From positions 1-33,652 of IMG/VR virus record IMGVR_UViG_3300045988_086956: 33,652 nucleotides of DNA. One strand, 5' to 3'. Origin of the DNA: a virus. Both the position numbers and the translations under genes were made by a program. Numbering within the stretch: the stretch's first letter is position 1; each line of letters opens with the position of its first letter. The notes under the pieces were generated by a model that worked only from the letters and a program-made list of their open reading frames with translations, did not search any database and had not been told where the DNA came from. Positions 239 through 33,652 of this stretch are shown piece by piece.

Positions 239-418
239 TTATGACAAAACCTCTCTTGCATAGCTATACAATTTTTCGGCAGTCAATAACGTCATTTTAT
301 CCATGCTTGTTTTACCACTTCTTAAATCAGCTACAGTTGACCACGGAATCTCTGCTCCTTTAGCAATTGAGCTTGTACTTTCATTACTTTCAAGTAGTTT
401 TTGGATTTCTTCTCTCAT
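239..418 (-). CDS. 59-aa small HTH-like protein (just below the 60-aa ORF-track cutoff)
   Basis: Hand translation: MREEIQKLLESNESTSSIAKGAEIPWSTVADLRSGKTSMDKMTLLTAEKLYSYAREVLS. The helix-turn-helix-like segment is SIAKGAEIPWSTVADLRSG. The RBS is weak. Confidence 0.4.
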   Translation of the reverse strand: MREEIQKLLESNESTSSIAKGAEIPWSTVADLRSGKTSMDKMTLLTAEKLYSYAREVLS

Positions 419-523
419 TTTGGAATTCTTTCTGATTTCATTTTCGTTTATCCTTTAGAATTGCTACAAATACAAAGAACACGAGTACGAATATTGGTAA
501 ATATTTCATTTTTTCGTTTGATA

Positions 524-532
524 TGATATAAT
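524..532 (+). promoter_or_regulatory. Extended -10 (TGATATAAT) of a predicted rightward antisense promoter
   Basis: It sits in a 15-nt block GATATGATATAATCA (520-534) that is repeated inverted at 722-736. No good -35. Confidence 0.3.
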
Positions 533-574
533 CAAAGTAGGAGCAGGGGCTTTCGCCCCCGACCTATAAGAGCC

Positions 575-706
575 TTATTTGAACCGCTTTGCTTTGCGTG
601 GCTTGCGTTCTTTTGGCTCTTTTTTTATTGCCATGATAACACTTGCAATCCCTGTCAACAGGGTTCCGGTTGCTACCATTAAATCGGCAATCTCTGAGAT
701 TTTCAT
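575..706 (-). CDS. 43-aa membrane peptide with basic C-terminal tail (type I toxin-like or moron peptide)
   Basis: MKISEIADLMVATGTLLTGIASVIMAIKKEPKERKPRKAKRFK. Strong SD AAAGGAGGAAAGAT before the ATG at 706, and a near-consensus promoter upstream. Confidence 0.5.
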   Translation of the reverse strand: MKISEIADLMVATGTLLTGIASVIMAIKKEPKERKPRKAKRFK

Positions 707-728
707 ATCTTTCCTCCTTTCTGATTAT

Positions 729-757
729 ATCATATCACGGCACGCCGTGAATGTCAA
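729..757 (-). promoter_or_regulatory. Sigma-70-type promoter TTGACA-17-TATGAT reading leftward into the 43-aa ORF
   Basis: -35 TTGACA is the reverse complement of 752-757 and -10 TATGAT of 729-734. The spacer contains the palindrome TCACGGC-nn-GCCGTGA (735-750). Confidence 0.6.
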
Positions 758-801
758 CACTTTTTACCAACTTTTTTTATTTTTTTTAAAATTTTTACAA
801 T

Positions 802-828
802 AAAAAGCCCTAGCCAAAGCTAGGGTTT
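802..828 (-). terminator. Rho-independent terminator downstream of the endolysin gene
   Basis: On the minus strand: CCCTAGC-TTTG-GCTAGGG followed by CTTTTT. Confidence 0.7.
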
Positions 829-832
829 ACTG

Positions 833-1639
833 TTATCCATAAAGCAAATGATTGACATCCCAAACCGACAGCCAGATTTGACCGCTTGCTGCAAGTGTAA
901 CGTGTCGCCAATAATAACCACCAGAGCCATAAGCTCCCTCACCGTCAGAGACAATCTTATTAGGGTTTATGACAAAATAGCTACCTACTTTTGTCTCTTG
1001 GTCGCTAATCACATTACTGTTTGCATCCACAAGGTCAATATCTGCAACATCAATGCCATTATCTGTCCAGTCAAAGTCAACTGGGCAGAGGTCATCACAA
1101 CGAACTTGCCAGATGCCATTGACAAATTGCAAGTCGTTGACTTGATAGACTTTTAATTTGTTACCCGTTTGTGGTTTAGCTGGTGTAGCCTTTGCTTGTG
1201 CATTTAAGCGGTAAACTGTTTCGCGAGGTCGTCCGTTGATTTCCCAAATTTGATTATAGTCATTTTCGGTCACGCCGTCATAGCCAAAATTACAGTGGAT
1301 CATGGTTGTAGGACTGGTCATAATCACAACATGCCCAAACGCACCTAATGAGCTTGACATATCACGAGGACCCCAAATAACCACATCACCCACCTGGGCG
1401 TCAAAAGAGCCGTCTATACCATCATAAACGCAATTGTACCCAATTGTAGGCAAGTTGCTTTTCAGCGTCTCTGTGTTGTTGTTTAGGCTCAATCCGACCG
1501 CTTTACTGACCGCACTAGAGCAATCATACTCAATTCGTCCGTCTCTGTCTGCGTCATTGCCGTAACGGTCTCCCATATCGTAATAGACTGGGATAGCTGC
1601 TAAGTTGCGCATCTCTGCAATACTAGATTCAATACTCAT
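833..1639 (-). CDS. Endolysin: N-terminal Amidase_5 (Pal-type) peptidoglycan hydrolase domain, C-terminal SH3b-like cell-wall-binding domain
   Basis: Motifs YDCSSAVSKA, GDVVIWG and GHVVIM..IHCNFGYDG, as in Pal-type phage amidases. AAGGAG RBS. Last gene of the late operon, following the holin. Confidence 0.88.
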   Translation of the reverse strand: MSIESSIAEMRNLAAIPVYYDMGDRYGNDADRDGRIEYDCSSAVSKAVGLSLNNNTETLKSNLPTIGYNCVYDGIDGSFDAQVGDVVIWGPRDMSSSLGAFGHVVIMTSPTTMIHCNFGYDGVTENDYNQIWEINGRPRETVYRLNAQAKATPAKPQTGNKLKVYQVNDLQFVNGIWQVRCDDLCPVDFDWTDNGIDVADIDLVDANSNVISDQETKVGSYFVINPNKIVSDGEGAYGSGGYYWRHVTLAASGQIWLSVWDVNHLLYG

Positions 1640-1641
1640 AT

Positions 1642-1926
1642 CTATTCTCCTTTTGTTTCTGTTTCCGTTTTGTGTGGTTCTTCATAACCAAGTGCTCGCT
1701 CTGAGTCGCTAAATCCTGCTGTGGTCGGATCGTTGATAATTCCAATCAAAACTAGTAATGCAAATAGTACGTTAATAAATACTAAAATTTTATCAATCGT
1801 AACCCCAAAATCCAGTTTAATTCCAAAGATGTCTGCTCCTGCTTGCAAAAGCAAAGCAATAGCCGGCACAAGAGCCAGCCAGAAATTCTTGTTTTTGAAA
1901 CGTACTTTCCAGTTGATTTTGTTCAT
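1642..1926 (-). CDS. Holin, phage phi-LC3 family
   Basis: MNKINWKVRFKNKNFWLALVPAI...INDPTTAGFSDSERALGYEEP matches the remembered family signature. Two TM segments. Immediately upstream of the lysin. Confidence 0.85.
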   Translation of the reverse strand: MNKINWKVRFKNKNFWLALVPAIALLLQAGADIFGIKLDFGVTIDKILVFINVLFALLVLIGIINDPTTAGFSDSERALGYEEPHKTETETKGE

Positions 1927-2344: not shown

Positions 2345-2596
2345 TTACTTTTCCTTATTTCCAGATTCTAATTCCGAAATAATCGCATCTTCTACTTCAT
2401 AGATTTTGTTTTGAAATTCCGCTTCCTGCTTGCGAATTTCGCGACGATTCTTAGAATATAATTCCGTGTTATTAATCCACTCACTAAAAGAAGTGATTCC
2501 TTTTTCATCGATGTCTGCGGTCATTGTTTTTACAAGGGTATCATCAATCTTAATGTTGCCTACAAGTTTTCTTGTTTTTACGATTTCTAATGTCAT
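2345..2596 (-). CDS. Hypothetical phage protein
   Basis: ORF tightly packed in the late operon. No recognisable motif. Confidence 0.6.
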   Translation of the reverse strand: MTLEIVKTRKLVGNIKIDDTLVKTMTADIDEKGITSFSEWINNTELYSKNRREIRKQEAEFQNKIYEVEDAIISELESGNKEK

Positions 2597-2598
2597 AG

Positions 2599-2793
2599 TT
2601 ATTCTCCTTTTTCTTCGGCTGGCTTCGTTTGTTCTTCAAGCAGAGCTTCCAGCTCTTGCACTCGTGCCTGAAGGTTTTCGTTTTCGGCTTGCGCTTGAAT
2701 CAAGCACGCCTTAAATTCTGCTGCTTCTAGCGCTTTGTCACCGATTTGATTTTTCAAATCAGTAAACATGTAAGTGTATACGTTTTCGTTCAT
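2599..2793 (-). CDS. Hypothetical coiled-coil phage protein
   Basis: ORF tightly packed downstream of the Tal gene. Heptad-like acidic sequence. Confidence 0.6.
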   Translation of the reverse strand: MNENVYTYMFTDLKNQIGDKALEAAEFKACLIQAQAENENLQARVQELEALLEEQTKPAEEKGE

Positions 2794-2804
2794 GCGTTTC
2801 TCCT

Positions 2805-5800
2805 TTAAATAGTTAATTTACTTGGGATAGAATAAGAATATCCGTGTTCAGTTGTTTTATTATGGTGTAATAATTCTACGTTATCAATAAGCGAATTAAT
2901 TCGATTGGCAATAGATTGTAAAATTCCATGCAATGATGAATAGTAAGTCCCCGAATTTTCAAGATATAACCATACATCGCCAACTTGTAAAACAGATTCT
3001 CGGCGGTCTTGTTGCCGTCTCGGATAAATTTGCAGTTTTCCTGTTGTAGAAACTACCCAACCGTCGGCGTTTTCGTATGCTGAACTGGCAAGTCTTACAG
3101 CATCACCTACAACATCAATTGAATCAACTCCATTTCCATTCCATGCCCGAATGCCTACAAAACCACCATCATTAGAGCTTTCACTTCCCCAGCGGTTCGA
3201 ACCAATAACTGTGACCCCAACCTTTGTACCATTTGAGGAACCGGTCGCGAATTTTACAAACTGATTCGGAAAACCACCCGTTACTCGTCTTATAGCCGGA
3301 TCGTCTGTATAAAATTCCAGTGTACCGGAACTTAAATCAAAGCTGGTATTTCCGTTTAACGATTTTAAAAGGCCGCCTTTGATTTGCGTAGCGCTAAAGT
3401 CAATTGTTGACAGTTTATTGATAAACGCTTGCTTAGCTACCAAATTGTTTAACAAGGCATCATCCGCAGTCAACTTGCGAACGAGAGCATAATCTACTTT
3501 TAATTCAGCAGCTGTTACTGCGTCTGCTGCCAGAACTTCTGTCGTCACTGCTCCAGCTGCTAGATGGGCAGTTGTGATTGTATTAGCTGCTAAATTTCGT
3601 CCTGTAATAGACCCGTCCACAATCAAATCACCCGTTATGCGCATAAGCTTTGTAATGGCTTCCATGCTTTCAGGATTTTGGACAAAAAGACTGGCAATCG
3701 TCTTGCCATTAACGACCTTACCTGTCCCAAAACTAATTTGTCCAGGTGTGATATTGATATCTGTCTTTTTCACCATTTCGCCGACAGAGGATTGAAGTTT
3801 TTTAAACTCACCATCTACCGTCTGTTTGTACTCTGCTAACTTCGTGTCCGCATAATTTTGATTATTTTCTGGCGCTGGTTGATAAGCCCGTTTCATCGTG
3901 CCCTCGTATACGTCAATTTCACTAATCCACACAGTAGCGCTTATTCCATTGCTGGAACCCATATTATCAAAACGAATTGAGAATCCATCATAGTTACCGC
4001 TGTTAAACGTAACGGAAAATCGTTGTGCTTCTATAGGGGATAAACGTTGGTGGAATACATTTATTGCATCTTTCCAGACATTGTCTGTATCAGAAAGTAA
4101 GCCTACTAAAACACGAAATCCAGATACATTACCTGACATGAAACCAGTAAACGACAAAGTATATGTTGTATTTTTTTTCAACTTGTTAAATATCACATTT
4201 TGTAAATAAGCTATATTAGGTTCGTTTGTATCAATTACAAACATTGGTTTTTTGCCATTTTTATAAAAAACATGCGTACGATTAGTAAACAATTTGTCAT
4301 CTGTTCCACCCCAATAACGATCCCCAAGTTCAACCGCACCGTTCAAAACCAAATTAGGGCTACCGATATTTAGCTCTTCAAATCGTCTCGTAATTCCTCG
4401 CACATCTTCTGTGTATTGAGATTTTGCGACATAGCTTTCAGACACTTGCTTTCGCAACGCTTCTGTACTGCGTGCTGTTTCCGTGCGTGTGTATTGTTCT
4501 AGCTGCTCTCTTCGCTTGCTGTCATCTGCCACATAAGATTTGACTGCAGTCATGTCCGTGTTCAGACCTTCTGCAGTTTTTTCAAATGTAGCGCGGGCTG
4601 CGGTGATTTGTTCGTCTGTATCTTCAAGCGCTGGTTTAGGCGTTGTGGCTATGTTTCCATCCTCCAGTTGTGGATCTCGGATCCAAATAACGTCACCCGC
4701 TCTCCAGCCAAAACCATAAACAACAAAAGACCAGAACCTCTCAAATTTAACAATAAAGGCTTTTGAGACACGTTGCCATTTATCGGACAACTGGACTCCA
4801 GTTGTGATGTTTCCGCCAGCTTCAAATCCAATATTATATAACTTAATATCAGTCCGATTTGACTTAACATCAACAGACCACGTCATCTGTTTACCTTGCC
4901 ACTCTACACCGCGTAAATCCACCAGCGGCTTGTGAATACCACCATCATTACCTTTAACATTAGTGGCTTTTAACGCCCATCCACTCTTCGCGGTAGGGTC
5001 TTGCACTCGTTCAAAAGTCCATTCGGAACCTGCTATATTAAACGGCAGCAAGCCATCAAAGTCATAATGTCTGATGTAATTACGGCCGCCGACAGAAATC
5101 TGACTAATTTCTTCCCGAATTTTTCCGGCTTCCTGTTTCACTTCTGCCTTGCTAGCTTTATCGCCAAGCTGGCCAGTAATCCGTGCTATATTCTGTGTAT
5201 TGCTTTGTTCGTATGCTGTCTGCTGCGTGCTGATACCAGCCAGGTCAGATTTGACTTGTTTGATGTTAGCTTCTGTACTGCTTTGTAAATTCGTTAAATT
5301 TTGCTTGACTTTACCAATTTCAGCATTAGCATTCGCCAGACCTTGATTAAAATCTCGTTTGACTTTCTCAACGACTTCGCTTTTCGTCTGTTGTAGCTTT
5401 TGCTCGATAGACTGATTGATTTCAGACTTGACTTGTTCCGCTTTCGCTTTTGCTTGTTCAATACCATCGTTGATTAAGCTTTTCTGTTTTTCAAATTCTG
5501 CATCAAATGCTTTATCAGCATTCCTAAGAGCTCGTTCGATAGCAATTTCTTGAGCCGAATTTCCTATTTCTAATATCTCATTAGCAACAGATGATATTCC
5601 ATTAGACACTCTAGAACCGCCAACTCCCGGTTTATCATCAAACGTCAGAGAGATATACTCTTCTGTTAGAGCATTGAACTCATAAGCGATAGCTTTTTTA
5701 AAAATATCTATATTATGCTTTCTGCTCTTAAGATTGACCGTGTCACCGATGTGAACAATCTGACCGTCAAGCTCATAAGCTTCGATTTTAATAGCATCTG

Positions 5801-30067: not shown

Positions 30068-30096
30068 TTGACAAATTCTAAAACTAGTTTTAGAAT
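30068..30096 (+). promoter_or_regulatory. Rightward promoter TTGACA-17-TAGAAT with an embedded perfect 20-bp palindromic operator (30076-30095)
   Basis: TTGACAAATTCTAAAACTAGTTTTAGAAT. The palindrome is TTCTAAAACTAGTTTTAGAA. Confidence 0.6.
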
Positions 30097-30217: not shown

Positions 30218-30246
30218 ATTTTAAAACTAGTTTTAGAATTTGTCAA
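30218..30246 (-). promoter_or_regulatory. Leftward promoter TTGACA-17-TAAAAT with an embedded near-palindromic operator (30219-30238)
   Basis: Its reverse complement is 28/29 identical to 30068-30096. Confidence 0.6.
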
Positions 30247-32357: not shown

Positions 32358-32473
32358 AAAATCCCCACACTCGCCATCGCCAAATTTTGAGTGTGAGGAT
32401 ATCCTGTATAGTAAACGGCATTAAATGGCCAGTTTTACTATACCCATTTTATCAAAAAAGTGAGGTAAAAACA

Positions 32474-33541
32474 ATGGCATACTTCAGGAAAAGAGAAAAC
32501 GGTTGGGAATATCGAATCTCTTATAAAGACAAAGACGGCAAATACAAGCAGAAATCAAAAAGTGGATTCAAGACAAAGAAACTAGCTCAAGCTGCAGCCA
32601 GAGAGATAGAGGATAATCTGTCCGAAAATATCCTGACAGACAAAGATGTCACGCTCTATGATTTTGTCAAAACGTGGTCCGATGTTTACAAGCGACCACA
32701 CGTCAAGGATAAGACATGGGAGACTTATACCAAAAACCTCAAACATATCAAGACCTATTTTGGAGATTTGAAAGTAAAGGATATTACTCCCCTTTATTAT
32801 CAAAAGCGACTCAATGAATTTGGCGAAAAGTACGCCCAAGAAACTCTTGAGAAATTCCACTATCAAATAAAGGGCGCTTTGAAAGTGGCCGTCAGAGAGC
32901 AAGTGATCAGCTACAATTTTGCTGAAGATGCCAAAGTCAGATCTCAGATAGAAACCAGGTCAGAAGATAATGATTTTTTAGAAGAGAGTGAGTATAAGGC
33001 TCTAATTTCGTCCACACGCTCGAATATTCAATACGTGTCCTATTTTACCCTCTATCTCCTTTCGGTCACTGGTATGCGCTTTTCTGAGGCTCTGGGGCTT
33101 ACCTGGGACGATATAGACCTCAAACAAGGAATCATTGACATCAACAAGGGATTTGATTACTCAAAGACTCAAGATTTTGGAGATTTGAAAAACGAAAGCT
33201 CAAAAAGAAAAATCCCAATCGATAAGATCACGATTGAGACTTTGAAAACTTATAAAAAGAAATACTGGCAAGCAAATATAAAGAATCGAGTCTGTTTTGG
33301 TGTTTCAAATTCGGCCTGTAATAAACTTATCAAGAAACTTGTAGGTAGGCCTGTCAGAAACCACAGTCTAAGGCATACTTACGCATCTTACCTGATATTC
33401 AAAGGGATAGACATTGTGACCATATCAAAATTACTAGGCCACGAAAGCCCAGATATAACCCTAAAAGTCTACTCGCACCAGATGGAAGCTTTAGCAGATA
33501 AAAACTTCGAGCAAATCAAAGAAATATTCCTAACGGCTTAA
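32474..33541 (+). CDS. int: Tyrosine integrase with N-terminal arm-binding domain
   Basis: MAYFRKRENGWEYRISYKDKDGK N-terminus. Catalytic R (GMRFSEA), HxxR (HSLRHTY), H and Y (LGHES...LKVYSH). The ATG at 32474 follows GTGAGG. Confidence 0.92.
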   Translation: MAYFRKRENGWEYRISYKDKDGKYKQKSKSGFKTKKLAQAAAREIEDNLSENILTDKDVTLYDFVKTWSDVYKRPHVKDKTWETYTKNLKHIKTYFGDLKVKDITPLYYQKRLNEFGEKYAQETLEKFHYQIKGALKVAVREQVISYNFAEDAKVRSQIETRSEDNDFLEESEYKALISSTRSNIQYVSYFTLYLLSVTGMRFSEALGLTWDDIDLKQGIIDINKGFDYSKTQDFGDLKNESSKRKIPIDKITIETLKTYKKKYWQANIKNRVCFGVSNSACNKLIKKLVGRPVRNHSLRHTYASYLIFKGIDIVTISKLLGHESPDITLKVYSHQMEALADKNFEQIKEIFLTA

Positions 33542-33605: not shown

Positions 33606-33652
33606 TACCGCCTTTCAATACCTGACTTGTCAGGAATCAACCGAATGAAAAG
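33606..33652. repeat. Right copy of terminal direct repeat (candidate att core)
   Basis: Identical to 1-47. Truncated by the window end. Confidence 0.85.

Follow-up and report, generated by a model that had tools for sequence, protein, structure and literature searches.

What does the gene for a 43-amino-acid (43-aa) single-transmembrane (TM) peptide do at the edge of a streptococcal prophage, and how is its expression held in check? This question was raised by the 33,652-nt IMG/VR record IMGVR_UViG_3300045988_086956 (the window, in whose coordinates features are given), which is a complete Streptococcus (anginosus-group) prophage carrying 47-bp attachment-site (att) repeats at both ends. An earlier note, made from the letters of the window, had proposed a type I toxin-antitoxin (TA) module of the Fst/TxpA kind at this locus. 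We compared the locus with ~45 related loci from at least 12 lineages, and we favour, with a probability of about 0.6, a type I TA-like cassette in which a Hol-Tox-like toxin would be controlled by a 3′-overlapping antisense RNA, a lock on its start codon and an Aca-like autorepressor. The comparative evidence supports the TxpA side of the earlier proposal, and the arrangement is not Fst-like. The in silico basis of this reading consists of coding constraint, covariation in a fold-back helix and in hairpins, promoter conservation and the homology of a helix-turn-helix (HTH) protein, from which we infer the existence of the RNA, the toxicity of the peptide, the binding of repressor to operator and the biological role.

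The 43-aa peptide gene

The toxin-like gene occupies positions 575-706 on the minus strand and encodes MKISEIADLMVATGTLLTGIASVIMAIKKEPKERKPRKAKRFK, a homolog of the peptide named 'holtox' in prophages of group B Streptococcus (GBS). Translation and hydropathy agreed with the open reading frame (ORF) described in the earlier note, namely one TM segment followed by a Lys/Arg-rich tail: the best 19-residue hydropathy window (residues 9-27) has a mean Kyte-Doolittle (KD) value of 2.04, and 10 of the 16 tail residues are Lys or Arg. Across the peptide family, the tail carries a KK[EK](Q)P motif. The Shine-Dalgarno (SD) sequence GGAGG (713-717, minus strand), already recognised as strong, stands 6 nt 5′ of the ATG and is kept in all lineages, and the lineage alignments showed that the start and stop codons are conserved as well. 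Over codons 1-31, the ratio of nonsynonymous to synonymous changes (pN/pS) was 0.13-0.36 between lineages, indicating purifying selection; the ORF is thus kept across lineages of related prophages, and conservation was a point on which the earlier proposal depended. We regard it as virtually certain that the 43-aa gene is real.

Close homologs of the peptide are found in many prophages of oral and anginosus-group streptococci, and a 41-aa homolog with 68% identity is present in many S. agalactiae prophages, including Javan5 (2603V/R), Javan7 (A909) and LF1. More distant homologs, with identities down to ~35-50%, were seen in S. pluranimalium, S. acidominimus and S. orisratti and on metagenomic phage contigs. 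The exact peptide of the window was counted on 368 contigs, its GBS homolog on at least 1000. The strand opposite the gene also carries an ORF of 74 aa (579-803, plus strand), which we rejected as a gene, since it lacks an SD sequence, varies in start and length, and has a low pN/pS that mirrors the sense frame. In the record of phage LF1 (L002), a 94-aa coding sequence (1542-1826, plus strand) is annotated opposite the toxin gene and the 41-aa gene is left out, which is probably a mis-annotation; several Javan records have nothing annotated at this locus. Note that a run of seven A (toxin strand, 620-626, codons 27-29) lies within the Lys codons, and that many public homologs (proteins P0008, P0011 and P0017-P0022) have C-termini that are frameshifted from this run onward, either through assembly errors or as real slippage variants.

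As for the family of the peptide, UniProt and a TPA phage record give 'Holin-like toxin' as the name of family members, and the GBS homolog was named 'holtox', with PF16935 assigned by HHpred, and described as holin-like and of unknown function (Wiafe-Kwakye et al. 2024, PMC11357604). A search of PHROGs with the peptide gave phrog_3399, of unknown function, as its sole match, PADLOC held no family for the peptide or its 17 aligned relatives, and a PDB sequence search with the peptide profile gave nothing meaningful. The peptide family was then compared by hhalign with 25 genuine PF16935 proteins (TxpA, BsrG, BsrE, BsrH and enterococcal 'putative holin-like toxins'). The alignment ran gap-free from Met1 in both families with a score of 20.1 (P = 0.0011), and all of the 200 column-shuffled controls scored below this value (8.6 ± 2.0, maximum 15.1). 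As to kinship with known type I toxins, profile comparison thus showed a weak similarity to Hol-Tox/TxpA/BsrG above what composition gives, and no family hidden Markov model (HMM) was matched. We conclude from these comparisons that the peptide is probably a distant Hol-Tox relative and, by the HMM test, not a member of that family, and we predict that it is toxic, which seems to us fairly likely. Fozo et al. (2010) reported one TxpA-family toxin for S. agalactiae 2603V/R, which may or may not be holtox.

The gene is preceded on its own strand by a promoter (724-757) that was correctly described as near-consensus, with TTGACA at -35 (752-757), a 17-nt spacer, TATGAT at -10 (729-734) and an upstream TG. 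It matches the consensus at 11/12 positions, its predicted transcription start site (TSS) is at ~722, and the -10 element of relatives is TATAAT. The spacer contains the operator-like 7+7 palindrome TCACGGC-AC-GCCGTGA (735-750) that had been pointed out there, and the palindrome abuts the -10 element. It has no second copy within the window. Among ~25 relatives, the arms TCACGG/CCGTGA are invariant, and the 4-nt centre occurs in at least six variants.

The predicted start-codon fold-back and antisense RNA

In the minimum free energy (MFE) structure of the toxin-strand transcript, GAUAUGA (703-709, minus strand), which contains the toxin AUG (704-706), was paired with UCAUAUC (520-526, minus strand), with z = -5.8 in the window. 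This fold-back was examined in an alignment anchored on the ATG and an A[GT]TATA landmark alone, and hence not fitted to the structure. The helix was paired in 97.9% of cells, and 4/7 pairs, which are all 4 non-AUG pairs, showed compensatory double changes in different lineages; none of 500 shuffles reached the observed counts. The start-codon and 3′ arms are GUUAUGA and UCAUAAU in L041, GGUAUG and CAUACC in L043, GAUAUGG and CCAUAUC in L046, and GACAUGA and UCAUGUC in L047, and L045 has A-U at the outer pair. Furthermore, the G.U pairs of the helix fit the toxin strand only, and the helix appeared in the MFE structure of 12/13 lineages when each was folded separately. At the sequence level, these covarying pairs and MFE structures are those of a toxin mRNA whose structure limits its own translation, and the existence of the fold-back helix is, on this evidence, very probable. 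Because the start codon pairs with 520-526, the toxin-strand transcript must read past the first hairpin described below (hairpin 1).

The 3′ arm of the fold-back overlaps the -16 region of a second, predicted promoter on the plus strand; bases 1-7 of the conserved block in this promoter are the reverse complement of UCAUAUC. The rightward extended -10 that the earlier note had seen is present as TGATATAAT at 524-532 (full motif TATGATATAAT at 522-532) and is conserved in Streptococcus-like lineages. The predicted antisense promoter spans 504-532 (plus strand) and consists of TTTCAT (504-509), a 17-nt spacer and TATAAT (527-532), with TATG (522-525) in the place of the TRTG motif; it was missed by a consensus scan because its -35 element is poor. 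On the strand opposite the toxin, the conserved block reads G-A-T-A-T-G-A-T-A-T-A-(A/C)-T, which fits the Gram-positive extended -10 TRTGnTATAAT. The motif TRTGnTATAMT was found at a fixed spacing to the hairpin in 12/12 Streptococcus-like lineages, with varying bases on both sides, and the positions that vary within the block are those that a promoter tolerates ('n' as A/T/C/G, hexamer position 5 as A/C). The TATAMT hexamer is invariant and is not accounted for by the fold-back. Most likely, the conserved block serves both the promoter and the fold-back.

The cis-antisense RNA predicted from this promoter would be ~90 nt long (~539-629, plus strand) and would carry hairpin 1 (539-565) at its 5′ end, followed by a long terminator hairpin (568-621) and, last, a U-tract (622-629). 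Its complement in the toxin mRNA would take in codons 27-43 with the stop codon as well as the 3′ untranslated region (UTR). The transcript from about 539 had been described as fully antisense to the peptide mRNA, which did not hold, as the predicted RNA overlaps just the last 17 codons and the 3′UTR. The GGGGC-TTTC-GCCCC stem-loop (546-559) that had been placed at its start was confirmed as the inner part of a two-tier hairpin, which begins 6-8 nt past the -10 element in every lineage and in which both stems covary. In the base stem of the terminator, the codons just past the Lys-Lys run are paired with the bases that directly follow the stop codon, and this stem occurs as AGAGCC/GGCUCU, AGAACC/GGUUCU, AAAGCC/GGCUUU, AGAACAA/UUGUUCU, GAACAAC/GUUGUUC and AGAACAGC/GCUGUUCU. 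The U-run, which corresponds to Lys codons on the toxin strand, always lies 3′ of the terminator stem on the antisense strand, as in the layout of an intrinsic terminator.

The antisense analysis covered the module alignment and ten further divergent loci. Both hairpins were recovered by RNAalifold, and a covariance model built from the first lineages gave full-length matches on the antisense strand of divergent loci, with E values from 1e-11 to 2e-4. In the two-hairpin structure, 95.4% of cells were paired and 9/21 pairs showed double changes, compared with 36-54% for slid controls, and on the antisense strand G.U pairs outnumbered A.C pairs by 15 to 4. Taken on covariation and promoter conservation, the antisense RNA is predicted and likely to exist. 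A sub-threshold Rfam match to the Listeria sRNA rli48 (520-649, plus strand; 23 bits vs a gathering score of 100, E = 0.3) overlaps the predicted RNA and is probably due to chance.

The putative operon, its proposed control and rival readings

The earlier description of the interval was right about the 43-aa ORF and left unmentioned two further ORFs (438-509 and 239-418) that share the toxin strand. The first of these, ORF2, was previously unannotated and encodes a very hydrophobic 23-aa peptide, MKYLPIFVLVFFVFVAILKDKRK (mean KD 3.24), without an SD sequence. Despite strong divergence, its position, length (21-28 aa), hydrophobicity and charged end are kept in every Streptococcus-like lineage, and its changes across lineages are synonymous and conservative. 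ORF2 might encode either another toxin-like peptide or a partner for the 43-aa protein. A promoter scan found no toxin-strand promoter for ORF2 or gene 3. In one locus (L043), an additional 51-aa TM protein is inserted.

Gene 3 (239-418, minus strand), the last gene of the putative tox-orf2-gene3 operon, encodes a 59-aa HTH protein. It matched the N-terminal domain (NTD) of AcrIIA15 (PDB 8jfr_B, E = 2.8e-7, residues 1-57) and the N-terminus of phrog_1529 (E = 1.3e-22), and a member of its cluster bears the NCBI name 'DNA-binding protein'. The AcrIIA15 NTD is an Aca-like dimer that autorepresses via inverted repeats, one of them between -35 and -10 (PMC10901769, PMC7104187), and the position of the 735-750 palindrome is that of IR2 in the acrIIA15 promoter (PMC10901769). 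The base-contact residues S25/Q26/K31 of AcrIIA15 correspond to P25/W26/D31 in gene 3. At the sequence level, the locus thus has an Aca-type HTH protein at the 3′ end of the operon and an inverted repeat in the promoter, as acr-aca loci do. Other lineages have different palindromes abutting the -10 element together with different gene-3 families: GTAYATRTAC accompanies a KKW..N.EH..YL..RS.AR.FI protein in GBS, L040 and L033, and GCACGTGC accompanies a ribbon-helix-helix (RHH) protein in L041. This correlation between palindrome and gene 3 is suggestive. We consider it somewhat probable, judging from homology and position, that the gene-3 protein binds the 735-750 palindrome as a putative operator, through which gene 3 would autorepress transcription.

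Three side observations concern the repressor position and the promoter. In L041, L044 and L050, the place of gene 3 is taken by an RHH protein (weak DUF6290, NikA-like and RHH_1 matches), not an HTH protein. Near the toxin cassette of L023, a longer protein (2397-2819, plus strand) has the same type of HTH and a C-terminal domain (AcrIIA13-15-like) and is a candidate anti-CRISPR. In L033 and L034, the toxin promoter, the palindrome and the 5′UTR hairpin are duplicated downstream of gene 3 (~1985-2030), where the duplicated promoter drives unrelated small genes for a Zn-ribbon-like 65-aa protein and a 135-aa protein; the duplication suggests a shared regulon.

In the mechanism that we propose, the promoter at 724-757 would drive a transcript that encodes the 43-aa single-TM peptide and that most likely continues through the weak hairpin into ORF2 and the 59-aa HTH gene. 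At the level of transcription, the HTH protein would shut the operon down by binding TCACGG-N4-CCGTGA. At the level of translation, UCAUAUC would pair with GAUAUGA ~180 nt upstream of it, closing the ORF into a fold-back and hiding the AUG. At the antisense level, the extended -10 at 522-532 (plus strand) would yield the ~90-nt RNA with its stable 5′ hairpin and with a terminator within the Lys codons, and this RNA would trigger duplex cleavage or decay of the toxin mRNA, as with RatA, SR4, SR5 and SR6. Such a cassette would probably serve to maintain the prophage, or else act in suicide or exclusion by damaging the membrane. A more tentative proposal, which we hold to be possible but doubtful, is a hybrid design in which a type I toxin with interlocked control elements stands, as a whole operon, under an Aca-like autorepressor. 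In such a design, the 13-nt block at 520-532 would do double duty, supplying the -16/-10 of the antitoxin promoter on one strand and the start-codon lock on the other, and the intrinsic terminator of the antitoxin would be written into the Lys-Lys-Glu-Pro codons of the toxin. The operon could then be a membrane 'dead-man switch' that fires when repressor and antisense RNA decay (upon prophage loss or superinfection), or it might fire early in infection, like Aca-controlled promoters. If true, the hybrid design would connect the biology of TA systems with the logic by which anti-defence operons are regulated.

The setting of the module in the prophage was as follows. The att core is a perfect 47-bp direct repeat in two copies (1-47 and 33606-33652), and a tyrosine integrase gene (32387-33541) lies next to the right-hand copy. 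The module adjoins the 1-47 end and lies between this att core and the lysin gene (833-1639; Amidase_5 and ZoocinA_TRD domains), that is, in the lysin-to-att moron slot to which it had been assigned. The holin gene (1642-1926) is on the same strand as the 43-aa gene in the window, and the terminator of the lysin gene (808-825, minus strand) parts the module from the late operon. The left 1 kb of the window has 97% identity to phages Javan110 (S. constellatus) and Javan73 (S. anginosus). Prophages of GBS have the module in the opposite orientation with respect to the lysin gene, with other genes in between and paratox as its neighbour, and elsewhere it adjoins terminase, integrase or cI-like genes; from this variation in orientation and neighbours, it follows that the module moves as an independent cassette. 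In addition, the att core shares positions with a hairpin (42-67) that resembles a bidirectional terminator, and positions 1-200 have 82-84% identity to unannotated stretches of phages LF3, Str03 and phiGBSVK-B. Near the lysogeny-module genes, the 22-nt palindrome ATTCTAAAACTAGTTTTAGAAT occurs in two copies 143 bp apart (30075-30096 and 30218-30239), which are likely the repressor operators of the genetic switch.

Several results speak against the type I TA-like cassette. The PF16935 (Hol-Tox) model gave no match at E ≤ 10 in the 17 aligned family members, and neither did the type I toxin models of Pfam and NCBIfam, including Fst, even at E ≤ 10; the hhalign probability was just 21% against the Hol-Tox set and 2.8% against B. 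subtilis TxpA alone. The -35 position of the antisense promoter is always a poor (T)TTCAT that is constrained by the start codon of ORF2, the hexamer being the reverse complement of the ORF2 start (ATGAAA in the window), and bases 1-7 of the 13-nt conserved block are already accounted for by the fold-back. Both hairpins are able to form on either strand, and on the toxin strand hairpin 1 lacks a proper U-run behind it. The terminator lies inside coding sequence, the pair counts come from an alignment that was fitted to the model over a region that is partly coding, and Rfam at E ≤ 10 held no antitoxin family at the locus. The relation of palindrome to gene 3 is not universal, since L044 has an RHH gene but no clear palindrome, and the gene order of cargo, cargo and HTH gene fits an Aca-regulated anti-defence locus. 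The last point leads to the reading of the locus as a moron or anti-defence operon of acr-aca style, in which a strong promoter with an operator drives small cargo genes that are followed by their autorepressor, and there is no antitoxin RNA. The peptides would then be of use to the phage at an early stage of infection or would shield the lysogen (superinfection exclusion, anti-defence), and the conserved block would be kept just for the cis fold-back, which covers 7/13 of its bases, or for the control of ORF2 translation. This reading is favoured by the homology of gene 3 to the N-terminal autorepressor of AcrIIA15, by a palindrome placed between -35 and -10 like IR2 of acrIIA15, by the reuse of promoter, palindrome and 5′UTR hairpin for unrelated genes in L033/L034, and by the full-length HTH protein with a C-terminal domain of AcrIIA13-15 type nearby in L023. 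However, known Acrs are soluble, and each of the two cargo genes here encodes a hydrophobic membrane peptide with a basic tail; the cargo peptides had no match in Pfam or PADLOC. An acr-aca operon would also leave unexplained the invariant TATAMT with its spaced TG, the hairpin at the predicted TSS and the terminator-like helix with its U-run, and it is at odds with the similarity of the peptide to Hol-Tox toxins and with the sequestration of the AUG by a long-range helix, which is typical of toxic genes. We regard the acr-aca reading as unlikely.

The position of the gene directly downstream of the holin and lysin genes, on the same strand, raises the question of whether the 43-aa and 23-aa products are a holin-like or lysis-accessory peptide or an antiholin pair that belongs to the holin-lysin cassette and is regulated in cis only. 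A single-TM peptide with a basic C-terminus would suit such a role, and the Hol-Tox family is named after holin-like activity (PMC11357604). On the other hand, the terminator at 808-825 and the gene's own sigma-70-type promoter stand between it and the lysin gene, the GBS module is inverted relative to lysin with genes in between, and terminase, cI-like or integrase genes are the neighbours in other loci, as befits an independent cassette, so that a part in lysis is quite improbable. Far less probable again is a system of the Fst/RNAII (par) type, in which a 16-nt inverted repeat would be the 5′ interaction element of both RNAs. The promoters do converge, and the inverted copy of the -10 block that had been noticed at 520-534 proved to be perfect over 16 nt (519-534 / 722-737), with one arm at each end of the locus; when separated inverted repeats were counted in 1000 dinucleotide-preserving shuffles of 400-850, none had 16 nt or more and the longest had 15 nt. 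However, each arm coincides with the -10 region of one of the convergent promoters. The arms lie upstream of the two predicted start sites and outside the RNAs, so that the repeat consists of promoter DNA and does not reach into the transcribed leader as the earlier note had it. The perfect 16-nt repeat is found in the window only. Most close relatives have 15/16, because their toxin -10 is TATAAT and not TATGAT, and the GBS and L033-type loci lack the repeat though they keep everything else, including promoter, hairpins and fold-back. In addition, the peptide has no match to the Fst_toxin model of Pfam (PF13955) and is without Fst-type sequence. Being lineage-specific and untranscribed, the repeat was therefore rejected as an element through which RNAs would interact in the Fst manner; it stems from the near identity of the two extended -10 promoters in this lineage.

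Significance and comparison with known systems

The peptide is common in prophages of human-associated streptococci including GBS, where it is a gene of unknown function beside paratox, and a testable model in which a ~90-nt antisense RNA and a start-codon lock act alongside an Aca-like repressor would give 'holtox' a mechanism. The peptide was already known as 'holtox', as were prophage type I TAs with 3′-overlapping RNAs (TxpA, BsrG, YonT and those of C. difficile), and in the literature we found no description of an antisense RNA, a type I TA, an RNA structure or a regulator for this gene. As far as can be told, the covarying AUG lock and its overlap with the antitoxin promoter are new, as are the placing of the terminator within the KK[EK](Q)P codons and the association with an AcrIIA15-type autorepressor. 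If true, the type I TA-like reading would bring a streptococcal prophage family into the catalogue of type I TAs, provide a Gram-positive case of long-range translational locking in the style of hok and aapA1, and extend the cargo controlled by AcrIIA15-type autorepressor domains beyond anti-CRISPRs. The peptide motif would also be a clean example of a conserved motif shaped by RNA-structure constraint, here from a terminator stem and a U-run.

One of the closest known systems is the GBS 'holtox' gene (PMC11357604), a direct homolog with 68% identity that is accompanied by the ORF2 and the predicted RNA elements also seen in the window. It adjoins a hypothetical gene and is divergent from prx, and the paper that describes it gives no function, antisense RNA or RNA structure (PMC11357604). 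The GBS module differs from that of the window in its inversion relative to lysin, in its gene 3 and in its promoter palindrome.

Among the Hol-Tox systems, TxpA/RatA, BsrG/SR4, BsrE/SR5 and BsrH (PF16935) of the B. subtilis prophage-like elements and EF3263 of E. faecalis likewise have small single-TM prophage peptides. The N-termini of these toxins and of the 43-aa peptide are similar in register from Met1 (E..LM..G motif), and in both cases a convergent RNA, predicted here, covers the 3′UTR together with the 3′ stretch of the toxin ORF, an organisation summarised for Hol-Tox systems in the T1TAdb paper. Unlike those systems, the module has no match to the PF16935 HMM, a long Lys/Arg tail and a shorter (~90 nt) predicted RNA; its start codon is locked by a covarying 5′-3′ helix, and the toxin gene heads a putative operon that also encodes a second peptide and a DNA-binding protein.

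Like the 43-aa peptide, YonT has a TM segment joined to a very basic tail. The yonT-yoyJ/SR6 locus of prophage SPbeta resembles the module in having a second small ORF downstream and an antisense overlap, predicted in our case, of the toxin 3′ end; in yonT-yoyJ/SR6, the mRNA is polycistronic, the downstream ORF is toxin-like and an antisense RNA of ~100 nt covers the 3′ end of the toxin gene (PMC5848175). The two loci have no sequence relationship, and the antisense RNA of the module is predicted to start before ORF2, without overlapping it. A similar likeness links the module to type I TAs of C. difficile prophages (CD0977.1-RCd11 and others), which have peptides with a TM segment and a Lys-rich tail, overlapping antisense RNAs and a role in prophage maintenance (PMC7699646). 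The peptides are prophage-borne and of the same build in both, with overlapping antisense RNAs that are predicted in our case, whereas no sequence similarity was detected between them and the RNA arrangement is another one.

With regard to the start-codon lock, the fold-back would work like the fbi of hok and the 5′-3′ long-distance interaction of aapA1. In hok/Sok and aapA1/IsoA1, a 3′ element of the toxin mRNA (the fbi in hok) pairs with the translation-initiation region, and the full-length mRNA is untranslatable. The module differs from these systems in that it has no homology to them, belongs to a Gram-positive phage, has a 3′ arm that overlaps the antitoxin promoter, and has neither a leader ORF nor a known processing step. 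Finally, the likeness to AcrIIA13-15 and their Aca-like NTDs lies in the alignment of gene 3 over the whole NTD, the inverted repeat between -35 and -10, and the repressor gene in last place (PMC10901769, PMC7104187). In contrast to AcrIIA13-15, gene 3 stands alone, without an inhibitor C-terminal domain, and its base-contact residues and operator sequence differ, and the cargo that it would control, unlike that of acr operons, consists of membrane peptides and not of soluble Acrs.

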